Positions 4,920 to 56,502 of a stretch of 64,000 nucleotides of DNA are shown here, one piece after another. The notes below the pieces were generated by a model that did not search any database, was not told the origin of the DNA, and saw nothing but the letters and a program-made list of their open reading frames with translations. A program made the position numbers and the translations under genes. The first letter of the stretch is position 1. Each line of letters opens with the position of its first letter. The DNA comes from Planctomycetota bacterium (GTDB lineage: Bacteria; Planctomycetota; UBA8742; UBA2392): contig JACKID010000001.1 in assembly GCA_020638675.1 (NCBI GenBank), positions 2,243,261-2,307,260 of the forward strand, written 5' to 3'.

Positions 4920-5645
4920 TTGCGGTACGCCATATTCGGTGACATCCACGGCAATATCGAGGCGCTGGATACAGTGCTGTCGCATTGCAAGAAAGAGGGC
5001 GTTGACCGCTACCTCTGCCTGGGTGATATCGTCGGCTACGGCGCCAACCCCGACGAGTGTTGCGACATCGTCCGCGAAATGGGCTGCCCCACCGTCGCCG
5101 GCAACCACGACTGGGCCGTCTGCGGCAAGCTCAGCATCGAATTCTTCAACACCTACGCCAAGCAGGCCGTCTACTGGACGCGCGACAACCTCAAAGAAGA
5201 GAACATGCAGTTCCTTCGCGAGCTGCCGCTGGTCCATGAGGTCAACGACGACATCACGCTTGTGCACGGCAGCCTGAACTTTCCGGACCTGTTCGACTAC
5301 ATCCAGACCAGCCAGGACGCGCGCCTCTCGCTTGAGAAGCTGCGCACGCGCGTCTGCTTTCTCGGGCACTCACACGTGCCGGTCACCTTCTTCAGCGGGC
5401 CGATGGTCAGCTACTCGATGTCCTACGAGATCAACCTCAAGGGCTTCGAGAAAGCGCTGGTGAACGTCGGCAGCGTGGGCCAGCCGCGCGACGAAAACCC
5501 GAAGTCGTGCTTCGCCATCTACGACAGCGACAAAGAGATGGTGAAGATCACCCGCCTCGAGTACGACCTGGAAACCACAGGCCGAAAAATCCTCGACGCA
5601 GGCCTGCCCGAAATCCTCGCCGAACGCCTGAAGTTCGGGCGCTAA
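4920..5645 (+). CDS. Metallophosphoesterase (calcineurin-like phosphoesterase family)
   Basis: N-terminal GDIHGN motif, then GDIVGYG, GNHD and GHSH metal-ligand motifs. TTG start at 4920 (no in-frame ATG upstream). Confidence 0.8.
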   Translation: MRYAIFGDIHGNIEALDTVLSHCKKEGVDRYLCLGDIVGYGANPDECCDIVREMGCPTVAGNHDWAVCGKLSIEFFNTYAKQAVYWTRDNLKEENMQFLRELPLVHEVNDDITLVHGSLNFPDLFDYIQTSQDARLSLEKLRTRVCFLGHSHVPVTFFSGPMVSYSMSYEINLKGFEKALVNVGSVGQPRDENPKSCFAIYDSDKEMVKITRLEYDLETTGRKILDAGLPEILAERLKFGR

Positions 5646-5818
5646 CTGCCGTCGTCAGGATAGGCAGGATTGAAGAGGATGGGTTCACTTCGCAGAGCGC
5701 TGTCGCCATTTGCCCCATGAAAGTTGCGACGTGCGACGACCGGTCGCCATCCACTCACATCCTGTAAATCCTGACCAATGGCCTTTGCGGTATTCAGTTG
5801 TCAAACAGCTCGCGCTCG

Positions 5819-6283
5819 TCATGAGCTGTTTTGGTCGTGGCATGTTTCCGGTGTTTCGTCGGCGATCGGCTCGGGGTACGGCTCGTCTTTCATCTCGGGG
5901 AAGTACTCGGGCACGGGCACATCTTCGGTCGGGCTTGCGCCTTCTTCCGCCGCGGCCTGCTTTTCGACGTCGTGCTCGATCATCTCGTCGAGGTCGGCAC
6001 GGCACTTCGCGAGCTTCTTTTCACGCTCCTGCAGCAGCATGCGCAGTTCACGCGCGGCCTTGGTGGCCTCGCTGATCGGGTCGCGCCCGCGCCCGTCTTC
6101 ACGCGGGATGTAGCGCTGGGCACGCTCCAGTGCGAGGTCGTGGGTGGCCTGCGTGGACTCGATCGCGCGGTCGATTTCCTTCCCGCCTGTCTCAAGGTAC
6201 AGGCGGTGTGAAGAAGCAAGCGCCTCGAAGACCAGCTTGCGGCTGCGGGGCTTGCGATTGCGAACGTTGGCGTAGCGGGACAT
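5819..6283 (-). CDS. Hypothetical protein with basic N-terminus and acidic C-terminus
   Basis: ATG at 6283 preceded by GGAG about 7 nt upstream. The codon usage is realistic (K/E/D-rich), and the plus-strand ORFs overlapping it look like antisense artefacts. It lies immediately downstream of moxR on the same strand. Confidence 0.5.
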   Translation of the reverse strand: MSRYANVRNRKPRSRKLVFEALASSHRLYLETGGKEIDRAIESTQATHDLALERAQRYIPREDGRGRDPISEATKAARELRMLLQEREKKLAKCRADLDEMIEHDVEKQAAAEEGASPTEDVPVPEYFPEMKDEPYPEPIADETPETCHDQNSS

Positions 6284-6501
6284 GGGACGGCTCCGGATGA
6301 CTGGGCGGGAACTGCCCGCCCTCAATCATCCCGAGCGATGGAGTGCGTTCGGATTTGACCATCGCGACGAGAGGTTTTTTCGCGCACGCAAGTGGGCGGT
6401 TCGGCGTGACTTCGGTGGAATCGATGAAATGGCGAAAAAGATTCTTTTCACGAACACGTACCATTCGCACGGACCACAAACGCCATGCGCGAAGGCAGCG
6501 A

Positions 6502-6548
6502 AGAAAAAGCCCGAAGGACGCGAAGTCTCTAGACTCTTCGCGTCCTTC
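6502..6548 (-). terminator. Rho-independent terminator downstream of moxR
   Basis: Perfect 13-bp stem GAAGGACGCGAAG / CTTCGCGTCCTTC (6513-6525 and 6536-6548). On the minus strand it is followed by GGGCTTTTTCTTC. Confidence 0.55.
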
Positions 6549-6577
6549 GCTTGTCTTCGCCTCTTCGCGTGAAGCCC

Positions 6578-7687
6578 TTAGACCTTGGCAGGCTTGCGCT
6601 TCTTTGACTTGCCCAGCAGCAGATCCAGCAGGAACTGGCCCGGGCTGCGCCGCGCCTTGCGCTCTTCTTCGCGAACGTCCCATGCCGGGCGCGGCACGTC
6701 CTTGATCAGCATGCGCACGATGTCGCGGCTGTTCACGCCGTCGGCTTCCGCGTGAAAGTTCGTCAGGATGCGGTGGTGCATGGCTGGCAACGCGATGGCG
6801 CGCACGTCGTCGGGCAGGGCTTCGTCGCGGCCTTCCAGCGCCGCGCGTGACTTGGCGCCGAGGATCAGCGCCTGTGTGGCGCGCGGGCTGCCGCCGCACT
6901 CGATAAGGTCTTCGACATCGGCGTTGAACTTGTTCTCGGGGCGCGTGGCGCGCACCAGGTCGATGGCGTACTTCAGCGTCTCGTCGCGCATGTTGATGCG
7001 GCGCACGACGTCGAGCATCTTGACCACCTGCGCCGAGTCCATGATCCGGTCCACCGGCGGCATTTCGCGGCTGGTGGTGCGGTACAGCATCTCCATTTCG
7101 TCGTACTGGGTCGGGTAATCGACCAGCACGGTGAACATGAAACGGTCCAGCGCGGCGGCCGGCAGAACGTACGTGCCTTCCTGCTCAATCGGGTTCTGGG
7201 TTGCCATCACGAAGTACGGGCGCGGCAGCGGGTAGCGCTTGCCGGCGACGGTGACGGCGAACTCTTCCATGGCCTCAAGCAGCGCGGCCTGCGTCTTGGG
7301 CGGCGTGCGGTTGATTTCGTCGGCGAGCACGAAGTTGGCGAAGATCGGCCCGCCCATGAACTGGAAGCCGCGGTCTTCTTTCTCGCCGACCAGCACGTCG
7401 CTGCCGGTGATGTCGCTCGGCATCAGGTCGGGGGTGAACTGGATGCGGTTGAACTTCATGCCCAGGATTTCGGAGAGCGTGCTGATCAGCAGCGTCTTGG
7501 CGAGGCCCGGCACACCCAGCAGCAGCACGTGGCCGCCGGCGAAGAAGGCCGTCAGCACTTCCTCAATCACCTGCTCCTGCCCGACGATGCGTTTGCCCAA
7601 CTCGGCGCGGATGGCCTTGTGGGTTTCGCCGATTTCACCGAGTACGCGGTAATCGTCGCCTGACAGTGACGGCTGTTCTCTGCCCAT
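6578..7687 (-). CDS. MoxR-family AAA+ ATPase
   Basis: Walker A GVPGLAKT, Walker B VLADEINR, and the ...RIVGQEQVIEEVL... arrangement typical of MoxR. The ATG at 7687 has a GAGGAA SD; alternative starts are the ATG at 7705 and the GTG at 7729. Confidence 0.85.
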   Translation of the reverse strand: MGREQPSLSGDDYRVLGEIGETHKAIRAELGKRIVGQEQVIEEVLTAFFAGGHVLLLGVPGLAKTLLISTLSEILGMKFNRIQFTPDLMPSDITGSDVLVGEKEDRGFQFMGGPIFANFVLADEINRTPPKTQAALLEAMEEFAVTVAGKRYPLPRPYFVMATQNPIEQEGTYVLPAAALDRFMFTVLVDYPTQYDEMEMLYRTTSREMPPVDRIMDSAQVVKMLDVVRRINMRDETLKYAIDLVRATRPENKFNADVEDLIECGGSPRATQALILGAKSRAALEGRDEALPDDVRAIALPAMHHRILTNFHAEADGVNSRDIVRMLIKDVPRPAWDVREEERKARRSPGQFLLDLLLGKSKKRKPAKV

Positions 7688-7750
7688 GGGTTCCTCGCGC
7701 GCCATTATGGAAACGCAAAGCCCGGCCACAAGCAGAGATAAATCCGGGGG

Positions 7751-8059
7751 CTAGTCCGGCTCGTTCGCCCGGGGCTTCCAGACCTCCGGGTCGCGGGCCG
7801 CATGCACGACGCCGACCACCAGGATGCGCTCAGGCTCAACCCGATACCCGATGGAGTATGGGAAGCGCCTAAGTCGCACCCGGCGCATGCTGCCGCGTAC
7901 TTCCGCGTATGCCAGGGGGCTTGCCTTTAAGCGCGAGACCGCCTCCCGGAATGCAGCCTCAAATGCGGCCTCCAGGTGCGGCGACAGGGCCTGGTAATAA
8001 CTGCGGATCTCGGAGACATCCTGGACGACGCGTTTGTCGAACTCCAACGCGCGGGTCAT
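7751..8059 (-). CDS. ParE/RelE-family type II toxin
   Basis: 102 aa. The C-terminal YRVEPERILVVGVVHAARDP matches the ParE/RelE pattern. Its start overlaps the upstream small ORF's stop in an ATGA (8056-8059). Confidence 0.7.
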   Translation of the reverse strand: MTRALEFDKRVVQDVSEIRSYYQALSPHLEAAFEAAFREAVSRLKASPLAYAEVRGSMRRVRLRRFPYSIGYRVEPERILVVGVVHAARDPEVWKPRANEPD

Positions 8060-8304
8060 TCCGACCAGCCCAGTTCGCGACAGAACTCTCGCCAGCTGAG
8101 CGCTTGCTCAGGCTCGGCGGCACGGCGTTCAAGCGCTTCCCACGTCGGACCGCGGACTGAAGCGGGGTCGTCGCCGGCAAGAATGCTTTCCATGATCTCG
8201 CCCACCAGCTTCAGCCGGTTCTCGACGCTGAGCTTGAGGTAAAACTTGGATTCCGCCGCCTCTGCCATGGCTTTATTGAACCACGTTAGTCCAGCGCGTT
8301 CCAT
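8056..8304 (-). CDS. Putative antitoxin (addiction-module component) paired with the ParE-like toxin
   Basis: Small ORF ending ...KFYLKLSVENRLKLVGEIMESILAGDD... with 4-nt translational coupling to the toxin gene. The start is uncertain (ATG at 8304 or 8268). Confidence 0.5.
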   Translation of the reverse strand: MERAGLTWFNKAMAEAAESKFYLKLSVENRLKLVGEIMESILAGDDPASVRGPTWEALERRAAEPEQALSWREFCRELGWSE

Positions 8305-8585
8305 ACCTTGGGGCGGCGCCAATTCAACCGAACCGGCCGGGATGGCTATCCGTTTCAGTTGTTGAGGAAATCCGAACACGCTTCAGCAGGCTTCAGCAGG
8401 CATCGGCGGCACGGCATTTGATGCATGCGGGTTGTGGGCCGAATTCGGCCCCGGAAGCGCCCGTTTGCTACGGTGCGGACACCTTCCGGGGGCCGTCATG
8501 TTACCTGTTGGTAGCATTGCGGCTTCCGTGCAGTGGACTAGACTGCTTGGGTACCCCCGCCCGGGAGCTGAAACGAGGAGGCAAC

Positions 8586-10274
8586 ATGCAGCGCCCGAAT
8601 CATTTCCGCTGGACACTGATGCTGTTTGCAATTGCGGCCGCGTTCCTGGCCTTAAGCGTCGCGCCCGCCACGGTGCGCGCGGATGACGACTTCAAGTCGC
8701 TCAAGAAAGAGTATGAGCAGGCCAAGGCAGACGGCTCCCGCACTACCATGGGCCGCCTCGTCGACAAGATGGCCCGAACCAACGAAAAGGATGCGGCCAA
8801 GTACCTGCTGAAAGAGCTGTCCGAAGACCAGGCCGCCCACAAGCGCGGCAAGGCGGGGCTGCCCGGCGACATCCGCGACAAGATCGTCAACGCGCTCTCC
8901 AGCTTTACCGATGAAGACAGCGTGGGGCTGATCGGCAAGGCCGCGCTGGATCTCAAGAGCGACAAGGACCCGACGCTGGCGCTCGACCAGTTCGACTTCT
9001 TCAAGTCGCTGGCCCGCATGACCGGCGTGGCGCCCGCTGACAAGACCATTCGCGAAGCCCTGTCCGAGACCAAGAACCCGTTCATCAAGTGCGCCGCGCT
9101 TGAGGCCGTGCGCCAGGCCGGCGCCAAGCGCTTCGCGCCCGACGTCATCGCGATCCTGATGGAAGAGAACGAGGAGTGGATCAAGAAGTGGCTGATCGTC
9201 CCGATCAACACGCTGGCCTGCCTCGAAGACATCGTGGATCCCGCGGACAAGGAGACGGTCATCAAGGTCGTGGACGCGGTCGTCGCGTTCCAGGAACGCA
9301 CCACCTGCGCCGATGAACGCGTACGCTTCTTCGGCGGCAAGATGCTCCGCAAACTCACCGGCGAAATCGCCGACATGGAAAGCACCTATTACTGGAAGTG
9401 GTGGTCCGCGCAGATGAAGGCCGTCGGCGCCGTCGACAAGTCCAGCAAGCCCGAGGGCAAGCGCAGCAAGACCGCGGCCGTGCCGCCGGTGTTCGACGCG
9501 CAGCCCGTGGGCCGGCGCTTCGTGTTCGTGATCGACGTCAGCAAGAGCATGGAGATGCCGCTCAAGATCACGCTTGAAGAGATCGAGAAGCGCAAGAAGG
9601 AACGGGACGGCCCGGTCACCAAGGGCCCCAAGAAGGAAGAAGGCGGCGAAGATCAGGACCCGGCCGACAAGGATGCGGACAACCCGCTGCGCCAACTGCC
9701 GTGGAAGGACATCAGCACCAAGATCGAGCTTGCGCGTGAAGAGCTCTCGCGCGCCATCAAGACCTTCGTAGGTGACCGCCAGTTCGCAATCGTCACCTAC
9801 TCGACAGAAGTCGAAGTCATCACCGGCGGCTGGGTCCAGGCGACGCCCGACAACTGCGAGAAATGGTCCAAGGAAGTGAAGACACTTGAGCCCGTGTCGC
9901 TCACCAACATCCACGGCGGACTGATGCAGGCCCTGCGCATCTCCGACAAGGGGCTCGACGCCGAGGCGCCGTCCGTTGACCGCGACTGCGTGCTGACGGG
10001 CGCCGACAGCATCATCTTCCTGACCGACGGATGGGCAAGCTGGGACGACCAGAGCCAGACCAAGGTCAAGGACAAGCGCAACGGCCAGGACGCAAGCGTC
10101 GGCGACGGCCCCTTCATCTACGGCGAGGACATCTGGCCTGACATCCTGCGCCAGAACCTTTTCCGCAAGGTCATCATCAGCACAGTCGGCATCGGCATGC
10201 ACGACAAGGAACTGCTGAAGGCGCTGGCAGACAAAACCGGCGGCACCTACGTGGACTGGGGCTTCCCCGAGTAG
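8586..10274 (+). CDS. Secreted HEAT-like repeat / von Willebrand factor A domain protein (paralog 1)
   Basis: AGGAGG SD 6 nt before the ATG and a signal-peptide-like N-terminus (MQRPNHFRWTLMLFAIAAAFLALSVAPATVRA). MIDAS motif FVFVIDVSKSM, a downstream TNIHGGL threonine and an FLTDGWA aspartate. Its C-terminal ISTVGIGMHDKELLKALADKTGGTY is shared with the three paralogs. Confidence 0.8.
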   Translation: MQRPNHFRWTLMLFAIAAAFLALSVAPATVRADDDFKSLKKEYEQAKADGSRTTMGRLVDKMARTNEKDAAKYLLKELSEDQAAHKRGKAGLPGDIRDKIVNALSSFTDEDSVGLIGKAALDLKSDKDPTLALDQFDFFKSLARMTGVAPADKTIREALSETKNPFIKCAALEAVRQAGAKRFAPDVIAILMEENEEWIKKWLIVPINTLACLEDIVDPADKETVIKVVDAVVAFQERTTCADERVRFFGGKMLRKLTGEIADMESTYYWKWWSAQMKAVGAVDKSSKPEGKRSKTAAVPPVFDAQPVGRRFVFVIDVSKSMEMPLKITLEEIEKRKKERDGPVTKGPKKEEGGEDQDPADKDADNPLRQLPWKDISTKIELAREELSRAIKTFVGDRQFAIVTYSTEVEVITGGWVQATPDNCEKWSKEVKTLEPVSLTNIHGGLMQALRISDKGLDAEAPSVDRDCVLTGADSIIFLTDGWASWDDQSQTKVKDKRNGQDASVGDGPFIYGEDIWPDILRQNLFRKVIISTVGIGMHDKELLKALADKTGGTYVDWGFPE

Positions 10275-10341
10275 TCGCGCAACGGGCTGGGATTCGGGGC
10301 GGAGTCGTCGGTCGAAGTCACGGCCGCTAGAAGGAAATCGA

Positions 10342-11736
10342 ATGCACAGGCAACTGGTTCTGGCACTGGCTGCGGTCGCGCTGCTGTTTGCGCCGCTGGC
10401 CGTAACCCACGTGGATGCCCGCAAAGTCGGCCCGGTGCTGGTCAAGGACGACCCCAGCGAGGCGTTCGAGACCTTCAACAGCATGCTTCCGCTGGTCGTG
10501 AACGGCGACGACGCGGGCAATGCCGCGGTGCGCGAGGCGCTAGACGACAAGTCGCCGTGGATCGTGATCGGCGCCGTGGAAGCCGTCCGCCAGGGCGAAG
10601 TCAGCAAGAGCGGCAAGGGCAAGGTCTACCTGCCCGAAGTGCTCGCGCTGATGGATGAAAAGCACAAGAAGCTGCACAAGGAAGAGATCGTCACCGTCAA
10701 CGTGATCGCGTGCCTCGGTGCGCTCGCCGTGGTGGATACACCGCAGGCGCTGCAGGTCGTGCAGGCGATCGTCGACTGGCAGAAGTGGTCTGAAAACGAA
10801 GTCGTGCGCCTGCGCCACATGGCTGAAAAGGTGCTGTTCGACCTCACCGGCGACGACTGCACGCTCAAGGCGGAAACCGTAGGCTTCTGGGAGTGGTGGA
10901 TTCGCAACAAGGCCAACGCCCAGCCGGACAAGGCGCCCGAGAAAAAGAGCAAGACCGCACCGATCCTCTTCAAGGAGCCCGCGGTCGGCACCCGCATCTG
11001 CTTCGTGATCGATGTGTCCGACAGCATGAAGTGGCCGATCAACGAAGAGGATCTGCCCAAGATCAAGAAGCTCACGCCGCACCTGGACTGGGCCAAGATG
11101 CCCGAGCCCTGCAGTGCGATGGACCTCGCCAAGGCCGAGCTGATGCACTCCATCGACGCGCTGAAGCCCGGCGCGGAGAACGCCGACGAAAAGGACGGCA
11201 AGAGCACCAAGTGGAGCAAGAACGACCCGGAGCGCCGCTATTTCTCGATCATCACGTACTCGCAGGAGGTCGTGAACTTCAGCGGCGGCTGGATCGAGGC
11301 CAGCGAGAAGAACTGCAACATCTGGAAGGCCAAGGTCGAAGAACTCGAGCCCGACTCCTACACGAACATCCACGGCGCGATCCTCATGGCCATGGGGCTG
11401 CACGACAAGGGCGTCAAGACCGACAACCTTGAGCTCGACAAGGAGTGCGTGCTTACCGGCGCGCACACCATCGTGTTCCTCACCGACGGCTACGCGACCT
11501 GGAGCAACGACTCCACGGACCGCACGGCGCAGGACCAGTTCGGCAATCCCGTCGGCAACGGCGAGTACATCAGCCGCGAGAAACTGGTCGAGCTGGCTGT
11601 GCGCCTCAACCGCTTCCGCAAGGTGGTAATCAACACAGTCGGCATCGGCAATCACGACAAAGAGCTGATGCGCGACCTGGCCAAACAGACAGGCGGCAGC
11701 TACCAGAACTGGTACTGCCGCATCGTGTACAAGTAA
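10342..11736 (+). CDS. Secreted HEAT-like repeat / vWA domain protein (paralog 2)
   Basis: Signal peptide [42 protein letters not shown], then TNIHGAI, VFLTDGYATW and [26 protein letters not shown]. Confidence 0.8.
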   Translation: MHRQLVLALAAVALLFAPLAVTHVDARKVGPVLVKDDPSEAFETFNSMLPLVVNGDDAGNAAVREALDDKSPWIVIGAVEAVRQGEVSKSGKGKVYLPEVLALMDEKHKKLHKEEIVTVNVIACLGALAVVDTPQALQVVQAIVDWQKWSENEVVRLRHMAEKVLFDLTGDDCTLKAETVGFWEWWIRNKANAQPDKAPEKKSKTAPILFKEPAVGTRICFVIDVSDSMKWPINEEDLPKIKKLTPHLDWAKMPEPCSAMDLAKAELMHSIDALKPGAENADEKDGKSTKWSKNDPERRYFSIITYSQEVVNFSGGWIEASEKNCNIWKAKVEELEPDSYTNIHGAILMAMGLHDKGVKTDNLELDKECVLTGAHTIVFLTDGYATWSNDSTDRTAQDQFGNPVGNGEYISREKLVELAVRLNRFRKVVINTVGIGNHDKELMRDLAKQTGGSYQNWYCRIVYK

Positions 11737-11811
11737 CCCCGCAGCGCGCCGCCCCCTCGGCGCAAGCCCGCCACAGGCTCTGGGAGGAGGCTGGACGGGA
11801 CTGAGGAATCC

Positions 11812-13362
11812 ATGCAGATCCGCATCGCTCTGATCGCGGCGCTGGCGCTAATGCTGACGCCCGCCCTCCTCGTGCACGCGGGCAACAAGGACGTCGACAA
11901 CGCCCGCGGGGCATACCAGCAGGCACAGGATGAAGTCGCCCGCAAGGCAGCCCTCAACGCGCTGGTAGCGACACAGCACGAAGAGGCCGTGGATTTCATC
12001 GTCGGGCGTATCGCGCGCGAAAACGATGAGGTGAAACACGCAGAGTTCATGGACGCGCTCGCCGGCTTCAGCGCCGACAAGCCGCTCAAGGCGCTTCTCA
12101 AGGCGGCCGAGGAAGTCAAAAGCGAAGAGGACCACCAGCTCGCTCATCACCAGTGCGACCTGTTCACGGCGCTTGCGCGCAATCGCAAGTCCGACCTGCC
12201 CGAGAAGTCCCTTCGCAAGATGCTCGACGACCAGCGCATGAAGCCCTGGGCGACCCTGGCACTGGTGGAGGCCATTCGCGCGGCCGACGTGGCGGATGCC
12301 GGCACCGGTCGTCGCTTCATCGCTGAAGTACGCGCCCTGCTCGACAAGAAGCAGGCCAGGCGGCTGGCGTTCGAAATCGTGACCGTGAACGTGCTTGCCT
12401 GCCTGAAACAGTTGACGCCCAAGGACTCGCCCGCCGAGCGCAACGCCACGGTAAAGGCGGTGGTCGAATGGCAGGCCTGGAGCCACAACACGCAACCCCG
12501 CCTACAGGATATGGCGGACCGGGTGCTTCATCACCTGACCGGCGAAACCTGCACCCTCAATGATGAGACGCTTAAGTTCTGGCGCTGGTGGCTGGCAAAC
12601 AGCCCGGACCAGCCCGACAAGCCAAAGCAACAGGCGCGGGGCACGGCGACACTGTTTGACCAGCCGGCGCTCGGCGACCACATCGTCTTCGTGATCGACG
12701 TGTCCGACAGCATGAAGTACGACGTCACCGACGAAGGACGCGCCGCGATCCGAAAGAAGTCCGAGCACCTGGATTGGGACAAGATCAAGAGCAAGCTCGA
12801 CCTCGCCCGGCAGGAGCTGATCTACTCGATCAACCAGCTCAACCCCGGCAGCGACGCGCCGGACGCCCGACGCCCCCGGTTCGCCATCATCGCGTACTCA
12901 GACCGCATCTACGGCTGCACGAACGGCTGGCTGGTGGCCGACGACGCGGGCTGCAAAGAAGGCGTCGAAGCGGCCGAGAAGTTGGAGATCAAGTTCACCA
13001 CCAACATCCACGACGGGCTTGCGCGCGCCTTTGCGATTCACGATGGCGGCAACAAGGCGGACCACCCGGACACTACCGAGGAGTGTGTGCTGACGGGCGC
13101 GCACACGATCGTGTTCTTGACCGACGGCTTCGCGACGGCCAACGAGGACAAGAAGCTGCTGGAACCGGAGAACATCCGCGCCTCGATCCGTCGCCTGAAT
13201 CGCTTCCGCAAGGTGGTCATCAACACCGTCGGCATCGGCAATCACGACGACAAGCTGATGCCAGACCTGTCTGATGACTCCGGCGGCAAATACACAGACT
13301 GGACATTCAAAGAGAACGTCGAAGAGAAGAAGGGCAACTTCGGATTGGTCCCACGGCGCTAA
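11812..13362 (+). CDS. Secreted HEAT-like repeat / vWA domain protein (paralog 3)
   Basis: Signal peptide [39 protein letters not shown], then [17 protein letters not shown] and [26 protein letters not shown]. Confidence 0.8.
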
Positions 13363-13414
13363 CCGACGGCTATTTGAAGTTGCGCACCCCTCCTCGGCGG
13401 GCTATCCCTCTGCC

Positions 13415-14101
13415 ATGGATGGCAAACCTGCAATCGTGCTGGTCAGCGGCGGGCTCGACAGCGCCACAGTGCTGGCAATGGCCAAGGCCGACGGCTACCT
13501 CCCCCACGCCCTGACCTTCGACTACGGCCAGCGCCACGACATCGAGTTGCAGGCCGCCAACGCCGTTTGTGCTTCCCTTGGCGTCGCCCCGCCGAAGGTC
13601 ATCAGGCTGGACCTGCGCGCCATCGGCGGCAGCGCGCTGACGGCCGACATCGAGGTCCCGAAGGACCGCCCCGAAGGCGCGCCGGGCATTCCCGTCACCT
13701 ACGTGCCCGCCCGCAACACCCTGTTCCTGAGCTATGCATTGGCCTTTGCGGAGGCCTCGGGCGCGCATGACATCTTCGTCGGCGTCAACGCCGTGGACTA
13801 CTCGGGCTATCCGGACTGCCGCCCGGAATTCATCCAGGCGTTCGAAAAGCTGGCCAATCTCGCCACACGGGAGGGGGTAGAGGGCCGCCTCATCCAGATC
13901 CACGCCCCGCTGATCCATCTGACCAAGGCCGAGATCATCCGCGAAGGCACAAGACTGGGCGTGGACTACGCCCTGACCCACTCGTGCTACGACCCCGTGG
14001 GCGACCTCGCGTGCGGGCGCTGTGACTCCTGCACCCTGCGCCGCAAGGGCTTTGCCGAGGCAGGCATAAACGATCCGACTCGATACGCCGATTCGGCTTG
14101 A
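13415..14101 (+). CDS. queC: 7-cyano-7-deazaguanine synthase
   Basis: PP-loop VLVSGGLDS and a C-terminal Cys cluster [16 protein letters not shown], as in QueC. The ATG at 13415 lies inside a longer ORF. Confidence 0.9.
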
Positions 14102-14159
14102 TTCCATCCGGGCCGTTACTACCTTGCCGTCCGTTAGAAGGCTCTGAGGAAACTGGTCT

Positions 14160-14777
14160 ATGCCGAACCAGCCGATTTCGATCAATCTCGACCGCATGGT
14201 GGATGCCATGCTCGACACCCGCACGCCCCACTACTGGGACCCCAAGCGATCGAAGATCGTGCGCGGCAGCAGCGAACTTGACGACGACCGCACCCGCCGC
14301 GTGCTGATCGACACGATCGGCAAGCGCAAGTTCAAGCAGCTCACGGACGGCTTCGCCAAGACCATCGATCCCAAGGATGGCAAGCTGGTGCAGGAGGCCG
14401 TCAAGGGCAGCTTCGACAAGTTCAACCGTCTGCTGCAGAAGCGCCTTGACCTGAAACAGGCCTGGATCGCTTACGCCGGCGTGGAACTCATGGACGCGGC
14501 CGTGGACTGGCTCTCGATGCAGGGCGTCGAGGAATTCATCGCGACCGGCGAAATCGCCAAGTTCGCGATCGAAGAAGCCGAGGCCGAAGAAGAGGCCGAA
14601 GACGAAGACCTCGACGAGGATGACGACGAGGAAGAAGAAGCCGAAGAAGAAGAGGAAGAAGAGGTCGAGGAGGAAGAAGAAGAGGAAGAGGAAGAAGAGG
14701 ACGAAGACGAAGAAGAAGAGGACGAAGACGAGGAAGAGGACGAAGATTCCCTCGATGAAGACGAAGACGACGAATAG
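14160..14777 (+). CDS. Hypothetical protein with an ~80-residue poly-Glu/Asp C-terminal tail
   Basis: GAGGAAAC SD. The N-terminal ~125 aa form a globular-looking region, and from ~14575 the DNA is a GAA/GAG/GAC microsatellite-like run encoding EEAEAEEEAEDEDLDEDDDEEEE... Confidence 0.6.
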   Translation: MPNQPISINLDRMVDAMLDTRTPHYWDPKRSKIVRGSSELDDDRTRRVLIDTIGKRKFKQLTDGFAKTIDPKDGKLVQEAVKGSFDKFNRLLQKRLDLKQAWIAYAGVELMDAAVDWLSMQGVEEFIATGEIAKFAIEEAEAEEEAEDEDLDEDDDEEEEAEEEEEEEVEEEEEEEEEEEDEDEEEEDEDEEEDEDSLDEDEDDE

Positions 14778-20677: not shown

Positions 20678-23299
20678 GTGCGCATCATCCGGGACGATTT
20701 CGACAAACTCGTGGAAAGCTTCGGCGCGTCTCGACGCATGGCGACGCGGCTGGGCGCGTTGGCGCGCAACCAGCTGCACGTCTCCGAGACTCTGCTTGAA
20801 TTCGCTCACGACGACGACGGCAAGCCCCTCAGCAAGCTGCTGCTGGCAAAGGCGCTGCTGGATGACGCGGCTGAGCTCGACGATGCCGGGCTGGCCCGTC
20901 TGGCAAAAAAGCAGGACGCCGACTTCTTTGAAGAAAACCCCATCGCACTGCGCCGACAGGACGGAGTACGCGTCATCTGCCTCGCCGAGGAAGCCCCGGA
21001 AGCCGAGCCGGCCGAGCCGCCCCAAGGCAATCTCGCCATGCTGCCGGAAGGCGGCGTCTCCGGCGTGATCGACAAGAACGAGGCCCGCAAGCTGCTCGGC
21101 ACGGACGAAGTTTCGCGCCTCAAGCTGGACCTGGTCACCAGCAGCGACGTCGGTCGAAGGCTTGAGGCCGTGCGCAAGCTCTACCTGACCGAGCTGCCGC
21201 CGGACGAGAAGCTGAAGTTGTTCCTTGCTGCGCTGCGCGATCGCGAGGCCGACGTGCGCGCCGAAGCCGCCCGGGCGCTGGGCGGGCTGGGGCTGGAGGC
21301 GTCGCTTACCGAGAATCTGGCCAAGGCCGCGCGCGGCGCAACCGACGAGCGTGTCGTCGCCATCAGCAACCTCGCCCGCGTGCTGGGCAAGATGGACGGC
21401 GGTCAGCGCAGGCTGGGGCTCAGCCTGCTGATCGAGTTCGTTACGTCCGGCGAGGACAAGGAAGTGGTGCAGGGCTCGCTCGGCGTACTTGCCAACCAGC
21501 TCGTGGAGATGGAAGGCGGCGCAACGCTGGCCCCCCACCTGCACAAGCAGTTGATCGAGCTGCTGCAAGTGCGCTTCAACATGTACGAGGACGCTGCGCG
21601 GAAGGTCTATGGCAGGCTCTATGACGCCGACCGCGAAGGCATGTCCGCCCTGCTGGTCACCAGCGTGGAAGAAGTCTCACAACCGGAGCTGCGCTTTTTC
21701 CTGCTGAGCCTGATTACAGAGCACGACCTGGCAGCCGCTTCGGCCCCGCCCGTGATTGCGCAACTGATCGACGGGCTGACCCACGGCTCCGAGCTCGACC
21801 GCAATTTCCAGGCCTGCTCCGGCGCGCTGACCCGGCTCGGAGAAAAGGCCGTTCCCGGGTTGCTGAAAGCGCTGGACCCCGCCGACGACGCGGCGCGCGG
21901 ACGCGTGATTGACTTGCTGGGGCACATGTTGCGCGGCAGCGACGCGGCCGAGTACCCGTTGAAGAAGGCGACCTCGGCAAAGATTGCGAACGCGTTGCTG
22001 GGGCTCTACTCCGACGCAACGCCTGAGGTCTGCACGGCGCTGCTGGAGAGCGGCTTCTTCGATCATTCGGCACTCAGCAATGAGGCCCGCACCAAGGCGT
22101 CCGAGTTGATCATTGAAAGCATGCACGAGTTCCGCTTCGAGCGGCAGATCGAGCTGGTGCACGCCGCGCTGGAACGCTGCGGGCACTTTGCGCTGGAGCC
22201 GCTGCGCGTTGCGATGCTGGAATCCGCCTACGACGTCACGCGCCTGGCCGCGGCAAAGCTGCTGCCCGAGATCGTCGAGCGCGTGCCGGAAGTATCGAAG
22301 AAAGAGCTGCTGCAACTGCTGGAGTCCATCCGCACCATCACCGACGCGGAAGAAACCGAGTTCCCCGACCGCGGCCCGTTGTACATCGCTCTCGGGCGCA
22401 TCGGCGCGCACGGCAACATGCCGGCCGAGAAAGCCAATGAGCTGGCGCAACTGATGCGCGACCGGCTCGGGCATTCCAGCAACGTTTACGACATCCTCGA
22501 GGGCCTGGGCTACCTCGCCGCGGGTGAGAACCTGGCGAAAGACGAGCGCCTTGAGGTCGGGTATCACCTGCTCACGGTCCTCAAGCGCGGGCTGCCGGGC
22601 ATGTCCGGGCGCATGCGCAAGAATGAAGAGGGCGAAGACGTACTGCACTTCGGGCGCGAGACCACCGCGTACACGGACATGATCCCGCGGATTCTCGAGG
22701 GGCTCGGGCGCATGATCGAGGCCAAGTCCACGCCGGACGTGCTGTTCGAGCGCATCGCCGAAGAGCTGATCAAGCTGTGGACGGAGATCACCGACTACAA
22801 GCGCGTCTGGGCGCCGGCCGCAACGATGACGCTGGCGCGCCTGCTGGGGCGCATCGCGCTGGGCGAGCGCTGCAAGCCGCGCATGGCCGACGACATCACC
22901 GACCTGCTGACGCGCAAGCTGGTGCTGCTGCCGGTGATGCAGGTGATCGCGCAGCTCGTACTTTCGGGCGTAGACAGCGAGCGGATGGACCTCATCGCCC
23001 AGCGCGTGTTCAACGAGCTGGCCAAACGCATCAACGAAGAACCCGGGCCCGAGCCGACCGAACGCCGCCAGATCCTGGAAACGATGACGGCCGTCGCGCA
23101 AAGACCGAAAATGGGCGAGCGCGAGAAGGACGTCGAGCACGCCCGCCGGGTCGTGATCGAGGCGCTGTTCGCCGCGTTGCGGGACCGCGTCTTCCAGGCG
23201 CGCACGATGCTGGAACAACTGGCGGCCAGCAAAGCGCTGTCAGAAACCATGCGAACGGACATCACCCGCCGCCTCAAACCCGCAGCCAAGCGCGGCTAG
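20678..23299 (+). CDS. Large cytoplasmic HEAT-repeat protein
   Basis: 873-aa ORF with a GTG start at 20678 (alternative ATG at 20738), no signal peptide, and repeated ...DVRAEAARALGGLG... HEAT-like units. Its start is 15 bp from the divergent heptosyltransferase. Confidence 0.6.
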   Translation: MRIIRDDFDKLVESFGASRRMATRLGALARNQLHVSETLLEFAHDDDGKPLSKLLLAKALLDDAAELDDAGLARLAKKQDADFFEENPIALRRQDGVRVICLAEEAPEAEPAEPPQGNLAMLPEGGVSGVIDKNEARKLLGTDEVSRLKLDLVTSSDVGRRLEAVRKLYLTELPPDEKLKLFLAALRDREADVRAEAARALGGLGLEASLTENLAKAARGATDERVVAISNLARVLGKMDGGQRRLGLSLLIEFVTSGEDKEVVQGSLGVLANQLVEMEGGATLAPHLHKQLIELLQVRFNMYEDAARKVYGRLYDADREGMSALLVTSVEEVSQPELRFFLLSLITEHDLAAASAPPVIAQLIDGLTHGSELDRNFQACSGALTRLGEKAVPGLLKALDPADDAARGRVIDLLGHMLRGSDAAEYPLKKATSAKIANALLGLYSDATPEVCTALLESGFFDHSALSNEARTKASELIIESMHEFRFERQIELVHAALERCGHFALEPLRVAMLESAYDVTRLAAAKLLPEIVERVPEVSKKELLQLLESIRTITDAEETEFPDRGPLYIALGRIGAHGNMPAEKANELAQLMRDRLGHSSNVYDILEGLGYLAAGENLAKDERLEVGYHLLTVLKRGLPGMSGRMRKNEEGEDVLHFGRETTAYTDMIPRILEGLGRMIEAKSTPDVLFERIAEELIKLWTEITDYKRVWAPAATMTLARLLGRIALGERCKPRMADDITDLLTRKLVLLPVMQVIAQLVLSGVDSERMDLIAQRVFNELAKRINEEPGPEPTERRQILETMTAVAQRPKMGEREKDVEHARRVVIEALFAALRDRVFQARTMLEQLAASKALSETMRTDITRRLKPAAKRG

Positions 23300-52928: not shown

Positions 52929-53903
52929 CTACTTCATCTCGACCTTGGTGGCCTCCAGCACGGTTTCACCGGACTTGGTCTTCTTCACCAGCTTGATGAG
53001 CGCGCCTTCGGAAATCCACTCGCTGGTTTCCGTTCCAGCCTTTTCGTCCTTGGACTCGAAAACGTCGCAGACGAACTCGCCGGCCGCGACCGTCAGCTTG
53101 ACGCCGGTCTTTGTTGGCTTGCCGTATTCCTTGTCCCAGGTTTCCTTGTCGGTCGTCTTGTCCACCGCCTTGGCGCCTTCGCTCGGGACGCCCGCTTCGT
53201 CACAGGCCACGGCCGACCAGGTCGCTGACTTGGCCTCAACGGCGCCGACCTTGCGCAACTGGTAGCTCTGGTCCCGCCCCGGGACGGTGATCTTGAGAAT
53301 GACGTAGTTGTCGGTCGCGGCATAGAAACGCGGCATCTCGGACTTCACGGTCTCGACCGGATCCGGGTCCTTGGATTCCGCACTGCCCTTCTTGTCACTG
53401 TGGAAGCTCACTAGCCAGACAACATCCTTGCCGTTCGTAACCTGCTTGACGACGCCGCCGCACGGGACGTCTTTGCAGTAGTACGCTTCCGTGGTCGCCT
53501 GGCCGATGGTCCACTTGGCTTTGTCGCACTTGAGTTCGATTTCGCCCAGGGTGAGCGTCTCCTCAGTCCACTCGACCTCTTTTTCCTTACCGTACGGCAT
53601 GCGGATCTGGATCTTGATGGAGGCCCAGTCGCGCGTCTTTTCCTGCTGCGCGGTCTGCTTGCCGTTGGCGAACATCGTGTGCGTGTACGTGATCTTGCCA
53701 GCGTTCACCCGGGTTACTTCGTCCTTGAAGGTGATCCCGTTGCCGAGTGAGTACTCGGCCCAGTCCCCCTTCTCGGCATCTTTCCAGGTGTTCCAGCCGT
53801 CCGCCCAGTCGCCTTCCTTGGCGTCGGCGTGAATCGCGGACTGCTGCCATGCAAGCAGTGCCAGCACGGCGCAAAGCATTCCTGCGCGAAAAAGTTGGTG
53901 CAT
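52929..53903 (-). CDS. Secreted paralog-family protein P5 (unknown C-terminal domain)
   Basis: GAGGAGGAGGA SD and a signal peptide. The C-terminus AGEFVCDVFESKD...SEWISEGALIKLVKKTKSGETVLEATKVEMK is homologous to the P1-P4 C-termini. Confidence 0.6.
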   Translation of the reverse strand: MHQLFRAGMLCAVLALLAWQQSAIHADAKEGDWADGWNTWKDAEKGDWAEYSLGNGITFKDEVTRVNAGKITYTHTMFANGKQTAQQEKTRDWASIKIQIRMPYGKEKEVEWTEETLTLGEIELKCDKAKWTIGQATTEAYYCKDVPCGGVVKQVTNGKDVVWLVSFHSDKKGSAESKDPDPVETVKSEMPRFYAATDNYVILKITVPGRDQSYQLRKVGAVEAKSATWSAVACDEAGVPSEGAKAVDKTTDKETWDKEYGKPTKTGVKLTVAAGEFVCDVFESKDEKAGTETSEWISEGALIKLVKKTKSGETVLEATKVEMK

Positions 53904-53969: not shown

Positions 53970-55310
53970 CTACTCCATCTTCAGCTCGGTCAGCTCGATT
54001 GTGTGCGGGTCCGCGCCTGCGACTGTGGTCTTCGCGAGGATGACAATCCCGTTCCAGCTCCAGCTTTCGGTGTGTCCGTAGGCTTCGCTAACGGAATACA
54101 GCGCGGGATATGTGCCCGCTGGCGTCTCGACCATCTGCTCGATTTCGCCCGCGTAGGCTGCCGGCTCTTCTTCGGCCTCGCCCGGAAAGGTGTGCTTCAA
54201 CGTGTCCTTGCCCGTCTCGTTTCCCGCGGCATCGGTGACGGTCATCGTGTACGTCGCCTCGGTCTCGGTCACCTCGGTGACTTCGACGCGAACGGTCCTT
54301 TCCGGCTTCTTTTCGCCGTTTGCGGTCGTGTAGCTGCTGGTGACGTAGTAGTTGCCCAGCGTGCGGTAGAACTGGTGCTCGTCGTGGCCGAGGTCAAACA
54401 CCTCCAGGTCCATGCTGTAGTTCTTCATCTTTGTCGCTACGGTCAGCCCGGGCCAGTAGACGCTGGTCCAGCTTTCGAAACCCGCGTCATTCATGTGGTA
54501 GCACTGGAAGTCGCCGGCCGGGCAGTTCTTGGTGACCATCTCCATGTTGGATGAGGTTCCACCACCCATGGCCATGGCGGGCGCACTGAAGCTCATTTCC
54601 GTGTCCTGGCTGAACATGGACTTGCCGGTGTTGTCGAGGACGGAGAGCGTGAATGTCGCGCCGTCCGCGCGTACTTCCTTGACCTTGTACTCCATCGACG
54701 TCGAGGTTTTCCCACCGCCGGCGCCTGAGGTGGTGCGGATGGTCCAGCGCCTGCCTTCCTTGCGATAGAGCTGGTACGGGTCCACATCCGCGGCGTCGAA
54801 CCAGGTGAGCTTGGAAATCTGAGTCGAGCTCGAAGCAATCTTCAACTGCTTCACGACCAGCGGGTGATAGTCAACGCTCACCCACGTGGTGGTCTGCAAC
54901 GTCTCCGTCTTCGTCACGTGCTTGCGGCACTTGAACTTGCGGAAGCCCATATCGAGGGTCTCTTCGGTCAGGCCGGCCGCGGCGTAGCCCAGCTGCTCCG
55001 GTGATGGTGACTTCAGGTCGACTGTGTAGCTCGACGACGTGTAGCTGTTGCCGCCATCGGACACCGTCTCGTCAGTGATTTTCGCCTTGCCGTCCTTGTA
55101 GCTGGTCACCTGCACCGTCCGCTTGCTGACTTCGGGGGACTCGCCGCGTGTCCAGTCCACCACGCGGTAAGACCAGTTGCGGCCCTTCTTCGCGTACACG
55201 TCCATCAGCTTGATCGTCGGGTCGAGTTTGACTTCCGGTTCGGCGTCCTGTGCAAGCACGGCCGGGAACGCGAGCAGCAGCAGGAAGGCGGACAGGATCA
55301 GGCGTTTCAT
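53970..55310 (-). CDS. Secreted paralog-family protein P4 (internally duplicated)
   Basis: GGGGAGAT SD before the ATG at 55310 and a signal peptide (MKRLILSAFLLLLAFPAVLA). The conserved DPYQLYRKEGRRWT motif is present, with an N-terminal second partial copy (KGRNWSYRVVDW). C-terminus ...SWSWNGIVILAKTT...IELTELKME. Confidence 0.6.
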   Translation of the reverse strand: MKRLILSAFLLLLAFPAVLAQDAEPEVKLDPTIKLMDVYAKKGRNWSYRVVDWTRGESPEVSKRTVQVTSYKDGKAKITDETVSDGGNSYTSSSYTVDLKSPSPEQLGYAAAGLTEETLDMGFRKFKCRKHVTKTETLQTTTWVSVDYHPLVVKQLKIASSSTQISKLTWFDAADVDPYQLYRKEGRRWTIRTTSGAGGGKTSTSMEYKVKEVRADGATFTLSVLDNTGKSMFSQDTEMSFSAPAMAMGGGTSSNMEMVTKNCPAGDFQCYHMNDAGFESWTSVYWPGLTVATKMKNYSMDLEVFDLGHDEHQFYRTLGNYYVTSSYTTANGEKKPERTVRVEVTEVTETEATYTMTVTDAAGNETGKDTLKHTFPGEAEEEPAAYAGEIEQMVETPAGTYPALYSVSEAYGHTESWSWNGIVILAKTTVAGADPHTIELTELKME

Positions 55311-55382
55311 GGCATCTCCCCTGGCGACGGCTTGACCAGTGTAGTCGCCCTGTCCGCAAGTCGCCAAATCATTGCGCAAATG

Positions 55383-55407
55383 AAAGCGGGCGCCCGAAGG
55401 CGCCCGC
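55383..55407 (-). terminator. Cloned terminator hairpin, copy 1 (after P3)
   Basis: AAAGCGGGCGCCCGAAGGCGCCCGC, with a perfect 9-bp stem and a CGAA loop. It is identical to copies at 56462-56486 and 57533-57557. Confidence 0.6.
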
Positions 55408-55422
55408 CTGAGTGTCGTTGCC

Positions 55423-56376
55423 CTAGTCTACGTATTCAATCAGTTCAGTCGTCATCGACCCGCTTTCCATCTTGACCAGCAGGCCGGGGTATTTTTTCGA
55501 CATCCAGGATTTCGTGCCGCTCACTTCCGTCACAGTGCACTCAAACTCGCCTGCCTCAACCTTGATCGTTTCCTCGGTCGTCTTGACCTCAGGTCTGTCG
55601 CCCCAATCGTCTTCCGCTTCGCGGAACTCAATCTCTGTCTCGTTTGCCGGCAAGCCTGCCATCGGCTTCCTGTCCTTGTCCAGAACCGTGTATGACACCG
55701 TGGCACTGTTGGCACCGACTTTGATGACTTCCGCCTTGAAGTACGAGATTATGTCGTCCATGCCCTCAAGCTTCGTAGTGGTCTTCGCAGTCCATTTGCG
55801 TCCCTTCTTTTTGTAGAGCACATACGGGTCAGGCTTGTCCTTGTCTACGGCATAGCCCTCGCCGAAGTTCACGTCCGGGCTCGCTTCCTTCAGCTTCGCC
55901 AACGTGTCGAACCAGCGGACGTCACCTTCTCCGCGCGCCCACGGGAACACAAGAATCCCGAAGCGCTTGTTGATCTTGTCTTCGGCGACGATGGCCGCCT
56001 GTTCTACGCGCTGCAAGCGCTTGGCCGCATAGACGGCGTCGTGGACTTTGTAGTTGTCGGTTTCCATCACGTCGCTTGCGACGTCGCAGCCCTTCTTGTC
56101 CCAGGATGCATGCAGCGTCTCGGGTGGACTGCCGTTCCGTGCGTAGCTGATACGCGCGCTGTCGCGCATCCCGAAAAGGACCTTCTCCGTCTTTTCGGCC
56201 GCGAGTTCTTTCTCGGCCTTTGCGAGCCTGTCTTCGAGTACCTTGACTCGTTCCTCCAGCTCCTTGAGCCGCTCTTCGACAGTCTTGGAGGTCGTTTTCT
56301 GAGCAACGGTCACTACCGGGGCGATCGCCAGCAACACGCCAACCAACGCCGCAATCACTGCCGTCCTGATCATCAT
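55423..56376 (-). CDS. Secreted paralog-family protein P3
   Basis: AGGAGA SD, signal peptide MMIRTAVIAALVGVLLAIAPVVTVA, and a coiled-coil stretch. Motifs DPYVLYKKKGRKWT and ...AGEFECTVTEVSGTKSWMSKKYPGLLVKMESGSMTTELIEYVD. Confidence 0.6.
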   Translation of the reverse strand: MMIRTAVIAALVGVLLAIAPVVTVAQKTTSKTVEERLKELEERVKVLEDRLAKAEKELAAEKTEKVLFGMRDSARISYARNGSPPETLHASWDKKGCDVASDVMETDNYKVHDAVYAAKRLQRVEQAAIVAEDKINKRFGILVFPWARGEGDVRWFDTLAKLKEASPDVNFGEGYAVDKDKPDPYVLYKKKGRKWTAKTTTKLEGMDDIISYFKAEVIKVGANSATVSYTVLDKDRKPMAGLPANETEIEFREAEDDWGDRPEVKTTEETIKVEAGEFECTVTEVSGTKSWMSKKYPGLLVKMESGSMTTELIEYVD

Positions 56377-56461
56377 CGTCTCTCCTGTGTGTTCGGAATG
56401 CTCCAAACAGCTTCGTGGGCATTAGAGTTGTGAGCTTGCTGAACAGCAAGTCTCAAAAAAG

Positions 56462-56486
56462 AAAGCGGGCGCCCGAAGGCGCCCGC
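56462..56486 (-). terminator. Cloned terminator hairpin, copy 2 (after P2)
   Basis: The identical 25-mer AAAGCGGGCGCCCGAAGGCGCCCGC, preceded on the plus strand by an A-run (a T-run on the minus strand). Confidence 0.6.
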
Positions 56487-56502
56487 TTGTCTTCACACTG
56501 CT

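Follow-up and report, generated by a model that had tools for sequence, protein, structure and literature searches.

Predicted exported HEAT-like/vWA proteins encoded in tandem opposite a MoxR-type ATPase in a Planctomycetota genome

Genes of the locus and architecture of the HV proteins

We analysed a stretch of 64 kb from the genome of a Planctomycetota bacterium (assembly GCA_020638675.1, contig JACKID010000001.1; hereafter the window, whose own numbering is used for all positions). In this window a gene for a MoxR-type AAA+ ATPase lies opposite three consecutive, co-directional genes for proteins that join an N-terminal HEAT-like helical region to a C-terminal von Willebrand factor A (vWA) domain with a metal ion-dependent adhesion site (MIDAS). 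The three tandem paralogs and a fourth one, encoded at a separate place, are labelled HV1 to HV4 in map order (Table 1). The genes and their positions had been called in an earlier note on this DNA and were confirmed by the map of open reading frames (ORFs) and by Pfam; the gene order given here is based on the same ORF map together with Pfam and NCBIfam scans of the window proteins. The gaps within the triplet measure 67 bp (HV1/HV2) and 75 bp (HV2/HV3). The MoxR gene and the triplet indeed lie on opposite strands, but a ParE toxin/antitoxin cassette (7751-8379), which the earlier note had missed, separates their control regions.

Table 1. Features of the locus and of other parts of the window discussed in the text
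Feature	Position	Strand	Remarks
AspRS gene	left window edge, cut		window begins inside AspRS
Metallophos phosphoesterase	4920-5645	+	
168-aa ORF downstream of MoxR	5819-6325	-	poorly conserved; no family in Pfam or NCBIfam
MoxR-type AAA+ ATPase, 369 aa	6578-7687	-	Pfam AAA_3 and AAA_lid_2
Candidate sigma-70-like element upstream of MoxR	7704-7731	-	TTGTGG, 16 nt, CATAAT, then AGGAA ribosome-binding site; read from sequence
ParE toxin	7751-8059	-	ParE_toxin 41.4 bits, cutoff 23
Putative antitoxin, 107 aa	8056-8379	-	weak antitoxin match, 16.7 bits, cutoff 23.3
Conserved non-coding block upstream of HV1	8403-8515	+	15 loci
HV1, 562 aa	8586-10274	+	HEAT-like solenoid and vWA/MIDAS; predicted exported
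HV2, 464 aa	10342-11736	+	shorter paralog, intact MIDAS motif
HV3, 516 aa	11812-13362	+	lineage-specific third paralog
205-aa protein with poly-acidic tail	14160-14777	+	no Pfam family
873-aa protein	20678-23299	+	HEAT_2 repeats, no vWA
HV4, 553 aa	39910-41571	+	distant fourth paralog; separate locus beside dcw (cell-wall synthesis) cluster
324-aa ORF	52929-53903	-	borderline LlaMI restriction-endonuclease match, 25.2 bits, cutoff 25
Three ORFs	53970-57426		no family
428-aa protein	59965-61251	+	TPR repeats and two RNA polymerase alpha-subunit C-terminal domains

In an alignment of the window paralogs HV2, HV3 and HV4 are 39, 34 and 27% identical to HV1, respectively, and HV2 is the closest paralog of HV3 (43% identity). 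The MIDAS residues D317, S319, S321, T440 and D481 (HV1 numbering) are invariant in an alignment of 53 family sequences that includes all four window paralogs; they make up the complete motif, namely DxSxS, the downstream T and the D of the TDG loop, which had rightly been described as intact. With Pfam, HV1 was matched by VWA_3 (29.8 bits, cutoff 27) and HV3 and HV4 by VWA (26.8 and 26.0 bits, cutoff 23.8). The best vWA score of HV2 (21.6) stays under the cutoff, yet HV2 is a clear homolog that shares 38-43% identity with the other paralogs.

An AlphaFold2 (AF2) model of HV1, built on the 53-sequence alignment, is confident (pLDDT 87.5, pTM 0.85) and contains both parts of the HEAT plus vWA architecture proposed from the sequence. 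A signal-peptide helix is followed by about 15 helices arranged as a solenoid (residues 36-279) and by a vWA fold (residues 311-558), which holds a charged, disordered insert (residues 343-364). The N-terminal helical region that the earlier note had assigned to each paralog is thus seen in the HV1 model, but HV2 is devoid of its first ~100 residues. The HEAT_2 matches of the HV proteins in Pfam (14-24 bits) are all below the cutoff of 27.7; in a search with the HV family profile, alpha-Rep proteins were matched at E 1.9e-4, and an alpha-Rep match was also returned by Foldseek (about E 1e-3). The presence of HEAT-like repeats is supported by the predicted fold and marginally by sequence. In Foldseek and profile searches the closest folds of the HV vWA domain were the extracellular vWA domains of ITIH4/ITIH1, CaV alpha2delta, CLCA1 and Mfa5, and no solved structure matched the HEAT-like and vWA domains together. 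Moreover, no named family spans the whole HV protein.

Cys424 and Cys468 of the HV1 vWA domain (window positions ~9855 and ~9987) co-occur in 39 of the 53 family members. This hints at a cysteine pair, which would be in keeping with an exported protein that is stabilised by a disulfide.

The signature VxNTVGIGxHDxxL...TGGxY at the extreme C-terminus had been regarded as unrecognised and possibly novel. We rejected this view, since in HV2 and HV4 the best alignment to Pfam VWA_3 is that of the signature, which covers positions 116/118-154 of the 155 in the model; according to this alignment it is the usual final strand-helix-strand of the vWA domain. A profile of the C-terminal segment alone gave 'IYTVGIGA...DEDTLTKIATMTGGQYF' in PDB entry 4rck, which we take to be a vWA domain, as its best alignment, with an E value of 0.24 that is not significant alone.

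The N-termini of the 53 sequences were read by hand and analysed for Kyte-Doolittle hydrophobicity. In the four paralogs and their orthologs a short basic stretch is followed by a hydrophobic core of 15-20 residues, often terminated by P or G, and in nearly all orthologs a small-x-small site (VRA, VEA, VQA, GAQ; AxA/VxA) stands directly before the conserved mature N-terminus, which is DDFKSLKKEYE in the HV1 orthologs. The segment before the predicted cleavage site evolves fast and the mature end does not, and most members showed no second segment of transmembrane hydrophobicity. The signal peptides noticed earlier are therefore borne out by the features of the N-termini, which give good support to the prediction that the HV proteins are Sec-exported with a signal peptide of the signal peptidase I type. 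Were the segment to stay uncleaved, the charge distribution at the HV N-terminus would still direct the vWA domain out of the cytoplasm.

Family distribution, gene order and the MoxR ATPase

A word-indexed search returned ~58 close relatives of the HV proteins, all of them unnamed or annotated as 'hypothetical protein [Planctomycetes bacterium]', and an exhaustive profile search returned 281 clusters of 50% identity at E<=1e-30, many of which cover all 560 positions of the profile. Ten clusters were sampled; six have a name, in every case that of an uncharacterised 'hypothetical protein' entry from Planctomycetota or a metagenome. No description of a planctomycete HEAT-vWA family was found in the literature searched. 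As judged from these sequence searches, the HV proteins are an undescribed, Planctomycetota-restricted family made of known domains. Among its variants (P0225 and P0237) are a protein of 1027 aa in which two units are fused and one of 1019 aa that also gives EF-hand matches.

The HV2 orthologs follow HV1 in the relatives, and HV3, which represents a separate 50%-identity cluster, was found only in the window genome and its closest relative (L005), so that the triplet goes back to an ancestral pair to which a third gene was added locally. Distant HV homologs likewise stand in tandem pairs, with no MoxR gene within 10 kb (L026, L027, L028 and L033), and the neighbours of these distant HEAT-vWA genes include TPR/PEGA and HEAT-only proteins. 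One such HEAT-only protein is encoded beside the distant HV pair of L028. The window itself encodes an 873-aa protein with HEAT_2 repeats, which the HV family profile does not detect.

About 15 species-level metagenome-assembled genomes (MAGs) share the order membrane protein, Metallophos, MoxR (minus strand), HV1 and HV2 (plus strand), QueC, acidic protein and Mfd. The neighbourhood is thus conserved in relatives as far as MoxR, HV1 and HV2 are concerned, but this does not extend to HV3, and in one genome (SJ126) the linkage is broken. There, an HV1 ortholog (50% identity) is located alone beside GatB/DUF2203, and the MoxR ortholog (73% identity, RDD-fused) lies on a different contig with the Metallophos and membrane protein genes, facing two unrelated genes. 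These two genes, of 469 and 163 aa and divergent from the MoxR-RDD gene, were considered as diverged HV genes and rejected, as neither the HV profile nor Pfam matched them. Furthermore, the unrelated housekeeping genes around MoxR and HV form a 15-kb block that is equally conserved throughout. The HV4 gene of the window is flanked by a gene for enoyl-CoA hydratase (ECH) and the MraY/MurF cell-wall cluster, and the HV4 orthologs belong to a conserved block of HtrA, His-phosphatase, ECH, HV4, MraY and MurF with no MoxR within 10 kb. Since this functionally unrelated neighbourhood is equally conserved, synteny in the clade is generally stable and the adjacency of MoxR and HV is uninformative. The adjacency does not demonstrate a functional link between the two; where a clade rearranges its genes only slowly, a conserved neighbourhood is no proof of coupling in function.

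The window MoxR is 100% identical to an NCBI entry of 369 aa named 'MoxR family ATPase'. It was matched by AAA_3 (196.2 bits, E 2e-58) and AAA_lid_2 (61.7 bits), its translation contains Walker A (GVPGLAKT) and Walker B (DEINR) motifs, and the Pfam bpMoxR model matched it far more weakly than AAA_3 (37.8 bits). Eleven MoxR orthologs (73-85% identical, 530-567 aa; P0070-P0076, P0088, P0091, P0103 and P0105) carry a C-terminal RDD transmembrane domain (PF06271; for example P0074 and P0103, 55 bits at a cutoff of 24). Fused genes are found at the loci L010 (8065-9699, minus strand), where the fusion adjoins HV1-HV2, and L038 (8001-9704, plus strand). In a neighbour-joining tree the fusions occupy three branches, one of which is a grade from which the RDD-less subclade of the window MoxR emerges. 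Because the fusions stand at three separate positions of the tree, the sequences suggest an ancestral MoxR-RDD fusion that was lost several times, including in the window lineage.

The window MoxR stops at residue 369, without RDD. A profile made from the 11 fused orthologs found no RDD ORF in the window, and at the other loci no RDD remnant or stand-alone RDD gene, the only forms being the fused ones in L010 and L038; a literature search for a link between MoxR and RDD retrieved nothing relevant. The 168-aa ORF sits where MoxR orthologs encode the RDD extension. It is found with 36-48% identity in L002, L005 and L007 and is absent from the other related loci. The earlier note had called its product an unrelated acidic hypothetical protein; the lack of a Pfam family agrees with this, but the protein is acidic only in its C-terminal half and has a basic N-terminus. 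No DUF58 protein was detected among the window proteins scanned. The nearest outgroup MoxRs (~54% identity; L039 and L040) sit in a MoxR-DUF58-BatA/VWA_2 cassette.

A further vWA protein was noticed at some distance from MoxR. In relatives, the gene for an 843-862-aa VWA/VWA_2 protein forms a divergent pair with that of AspRS, ~8 kb from MoxR and just past the left edge of the window (L001, 159-2690, minus strand; L002, 1-1633, minus strand; L036, 15699-17140, plus strand).

The ParE/antitoxin cassette between MoxR and HV1 is a clean insertion of ~640 bp, whose boundaries at ~7745 and ~8395 were read from the alignment. It is strain-specific and absent from all 15 related loci. The putative antitoxin ORF lies upstream of ParE and overlaps it by 4 bp, and a direct repeat, GCTTCAGCAGG, occurs twice at the right edge of the insertion (8380-8401). 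On either side of the cassette lie conserved elements. The block upstream of HV1 (window position matched in L001, L005-L015, L018 and L036) contains invariant stretches at a fixed spacing of 90-92 nt. Its motif YGGCAYG-N4-TTGRT at 8408-8422 (GGCAC-N5-TTGA) has the -24/-12 geometry of sigma-54 promoters, but reads TTGA/TTGG where the consensus is TTGC; the block also holds GGGCC, GCTAC and the inverted repeat GTTACC-N4-GGTAGC (8500-8515). The motif occurs at one site only within the window, and neither rpoN nor an enhancer-binding protein was found in the scans of the window proteins. A structured RNA upstream of HV1 was considered and rejected: the RNAalifold covariation term was -0.01, the stems were merely invariant, and Rfam gave no match. 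The invariant blocks are most likely protein-binding DNA sites.

Upstream of MoxR, a block CATTATGGAAACG is kept in relatives, and we infer a sigma-70-like element from the letters there. A consensus promoter scan of 5600-14200 called no sigma-70 site, this element included, and terminator-like sites in a consensus scan of the same region were at chance level. MoxR and HV1 seem to be controlled from separate regions that do not resemble each other, which is mild evidence against simple co-regulation of the two.

Probable exported binding modules and the place of MoxR

We regard it as fairly probable that HV1 to HV4 are exported metal-dependent binding or scaffold proteins that act in sets of paralogs, and that MoxR is their syntenic neighbour. 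They place a rigid alpha-solenoid of the HEAT-like type at the N-terminus, ahead of a vWA domain whose MIDAS is complete. After export, a divalent cation in the MIDAS (Mg2+, Mn2+ or Ca2+) would most likely capture a ligand protein by one of its acidic side chains, and the solenoid would offer a second protein-binding surface; the combination would make the HV proteins metal-dependent binding or scaffold modules of the periplasm or cell envelope. They probably work as pairs or larger sets of paralogs that arose by repeated tandem duplication. The earlier note had suggested a family of exported adhesion or scaffold proteins, dependent on metal and multiplied by tandem duplication; this fits the predicted signal peptides, the MIDAS, the solenoid, the extracellular type of vWA fold, the recurrent pairs and the fused double unit. 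MoxR, in turn, most likely adjoins the HV genes by inherited gene order and has its own promoter, without being an obligatory partner. An obligatory link is argued against by the contig split in SJ126, the synteny of HV4, the tolerated toxin-antitoxin cassette and the dissimilar upstream elements.

Several observations weigh against this interpretation. The divergent arrangement of MoxR and HV1 is kept in the ~15 MAGs down to identities of 49% for HV1 and 70% for MoxR (L036), and all MoxR orthologs of at least 69% identity with visible context adjoin HV genes, SJ126 excepted. The window MoxR has neither DUF58 nor another obvious partner nearby, and the RDD anchor of MoxR orthologs would put MoxR at the membrane, near exported proteins.

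These points are taken up by a Bat-like trans-envelope system, a tentative alternative that we consider unlikely. MoxR, whose ancestor had RDD as a tether to the inner membrane, would assemble, metal-load or remodel the exported HV1 and HV2 by ATP hydrolysis, acting before or during export or via its membrane domain, and the divergent pair would form one unit without DUF58. The divergent MoxR/HV1-HV2 arrangement of the ~15 MAGs speaks for such a system, as do the three branches of MoxR-RDD fusions, including the one beside HV1-HV2 in L010, and the lack of a DUF58/BatA cassette beside the window MoxR, unlike in the outgroup. Precedents exist. In Borrelia burgdorferi the vWA protein BB0173 is encoded beside MoxR and its vWA domain faces the periplasm (PMC5700661), and the periplasmic methanol dehydrogenase receives its Ca2+ with the help of MxaR, the founding member of the MoxR group, which is required for this along with three vWA proteins, MxaS, MxaC and MxaL (PMC12276312). 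In view of these two cases, the premise of the earlier note that MoxR partners are normally cytoplasmic was too narrow, and the topological mismatch that it had seen in exported vWA proteins beside MoxR loses its surprise.

On the other side, the linkage is broken in SJ126 even though both genes are retained, and the HV4 orthologs and all distant family members are without a nearby MoxR. RDD is gone from the window MoxR and was not found as an ORF elsewhere in the 64 kb, a toxin-antitoxin cassette has been inserted between MoxR and HV1, different conserved elements precede the two genes, and the equal conservation of unrelated neighbours in the clade deprives the adjacency of its weight. The RDD-anchored MoxR keeps the trans-envelope model alive but does not overcome the counter-evidence from synteny. 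It is doubtful, and in our estimate quite improbable, that an RDD-anchored MoxR and an exported HEAT-vWA pair constitute an undescribed, DUF58-less trans-envelope system with the sigma-54-like leader of HV1 as regulatory input, in which a cytoplasmic AAA+ motor would govern how periplasmic MIDAS scaffolds are assembled or loaded with metal. If the link were real, RDD-anchored MoxRs beside exported vWA proteins could offer a tractable route to how MoxR ATPases act across a membrane, a question that the Bat and Mxa systems have also left unanswered.

The partner of MoxR might also be unlinked and MoxR unrelated to the HV proteins, for instance with the 843-862-aa vWA protein ~8 kb away or a DUF58/vWA pair elsewhere in that role, which we hold to be rather improbable. 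In L001, L002 and L036 the gene for the large VWA/VWA_2 protein is indeed adjacent to that of AspRS, and the window starts inside AspRS; however, housekeeping genes (AspRS, HAD, GatB, NUDIX and Metallophos) separate it from MoxR, and it has neither a BatA_N nor a DUF58 domain. Finally, that the HV proteins keep their N-terminal segment as an uncleaved anchor and are ordinary cytoplasm-facing vWA partners of MoxR in a classical chaperone pair is hardly credible: the single hydrophobic segment, with a Kyte-Doolittle value of at least 1.6 in a 19-residue stretch, could form a transmembrane helix, but the positive charges before the core would, by the positive-inside rule, leave the N-terminus in the cytoplasm and the remainder outside, the AxA/VxA site before the conserved mature N-terminus and the fast evolution of the segment are those of signal peptides, and the nearest folds are extracellular vWA domains.

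The reading as exported binding or scaffold modules can be set against known systems. Bat (Bacteroides aerotolerance)-type clusters, which comprise MoxR, DUF58 and the vWA membrane proteins BatA/BatB and of which BB0173 is an example, resemble the locus in having an AAA_3-type MoxR beside paralogous vWA/MIDAS proteins, with the Bat vWA domain facing the periplasm. The HV locus differs from the Bat cassette in its lack of DUF58, in the divergent orientation of the window MoxR and the HV genes in place of a co-directional operon, and in the HV proteins themselves, which are without BatA_N or a multi-pass anchor and appear soluble, with a predicted cleavable-type signal peptide and an N-terminal HEAT-like solenoid. 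The classical cassette is present in other Planctomycetota, beside MoxRs that are 54% identical to that of the window. ITIH1/ITIH4 and the VIT-vWA secreted proteins share with the HV proteins, as predicted here, the character of secreted MIDAS-dependent binding proteins, but no VIT match was found in the HV proteins with Pfam, and their N-terminus is all-helical in the AF2 model, with a HEAT-like solenoid instead. Identity to ITIH-type proteins is ~20-25% over the vWA domain, and the HV proteins are bacterial and occur in one phylum only.

MxaR/MxaS/C/L, NorQ/NorD, CbbQ/CbbO and RavA/ViaA are similar in that a gene for a MoxR-class ATPase lies near MIDAS vWA genes, and MxaR ultimately serves a periplasmic enzyme. 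In contrast to these metal-insertion chaperones, no target enzyme gene is located near the HV locus, and the HV proteins are predicted to be exported, show no known MoxR-docking element and are not linked to MoxR in every genome. The MoxR-vWA ternary conflict systems also encode vWA proteins with HEAT/TPR repeats beside MoxR, the repeats being placed in a C-terminal 'effector position' (Kaur et al. 2020, PMC7159879); a third component accompanies these vWA proteins. The likeness extends to HEAT-type repeats and to the bpMoxR model, which matches the window MoxR; the HV repeats, however, are N-terminal, and the locus has no conserved third gene. The vWA components of the conflict systems are presumably cytoplasmic, unlike the HV proteins, which look exported. 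Membership of the locus in a defence system was considered and rejected, as PADLOC gave only sub-threshold noise.

Among exported MIDAS/vWA proteins, the HV proteins are best classed as a variant with a new architecture. If they are exported binding or scaffold modules, they represent an uncharacterised and fairly large (hundreds of clusters) Planctomycetota-specific exported MIDAS family with a HEAT-like solenoid, which would help annotation and the study of the unusual planctomycetal envelope and would bring no conceptual surprise.

Other genes of the window

To the left, the locus is flanked by AspRS, GatB and a 275-aa membrane protein, followed by Metallophos, and to the right of the triplet lie QueC, the 205-aa protein and Mfd. 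The N-terminal 137 residues of the 205-aa protein are 66-97% identical in relatives and are followed by a long C-terminal tail of almost pure Glu/Asp; its gene is always placed between QueC and Mfd. Further to the right, the 324-aa ORF with the LlaMI-like match is adjoined by the three ORFs without family. The 428-aa protein, which combines TPR repeats with two RNA polymerase alpha-subunit C-terminal domains, has an unusual architecture.

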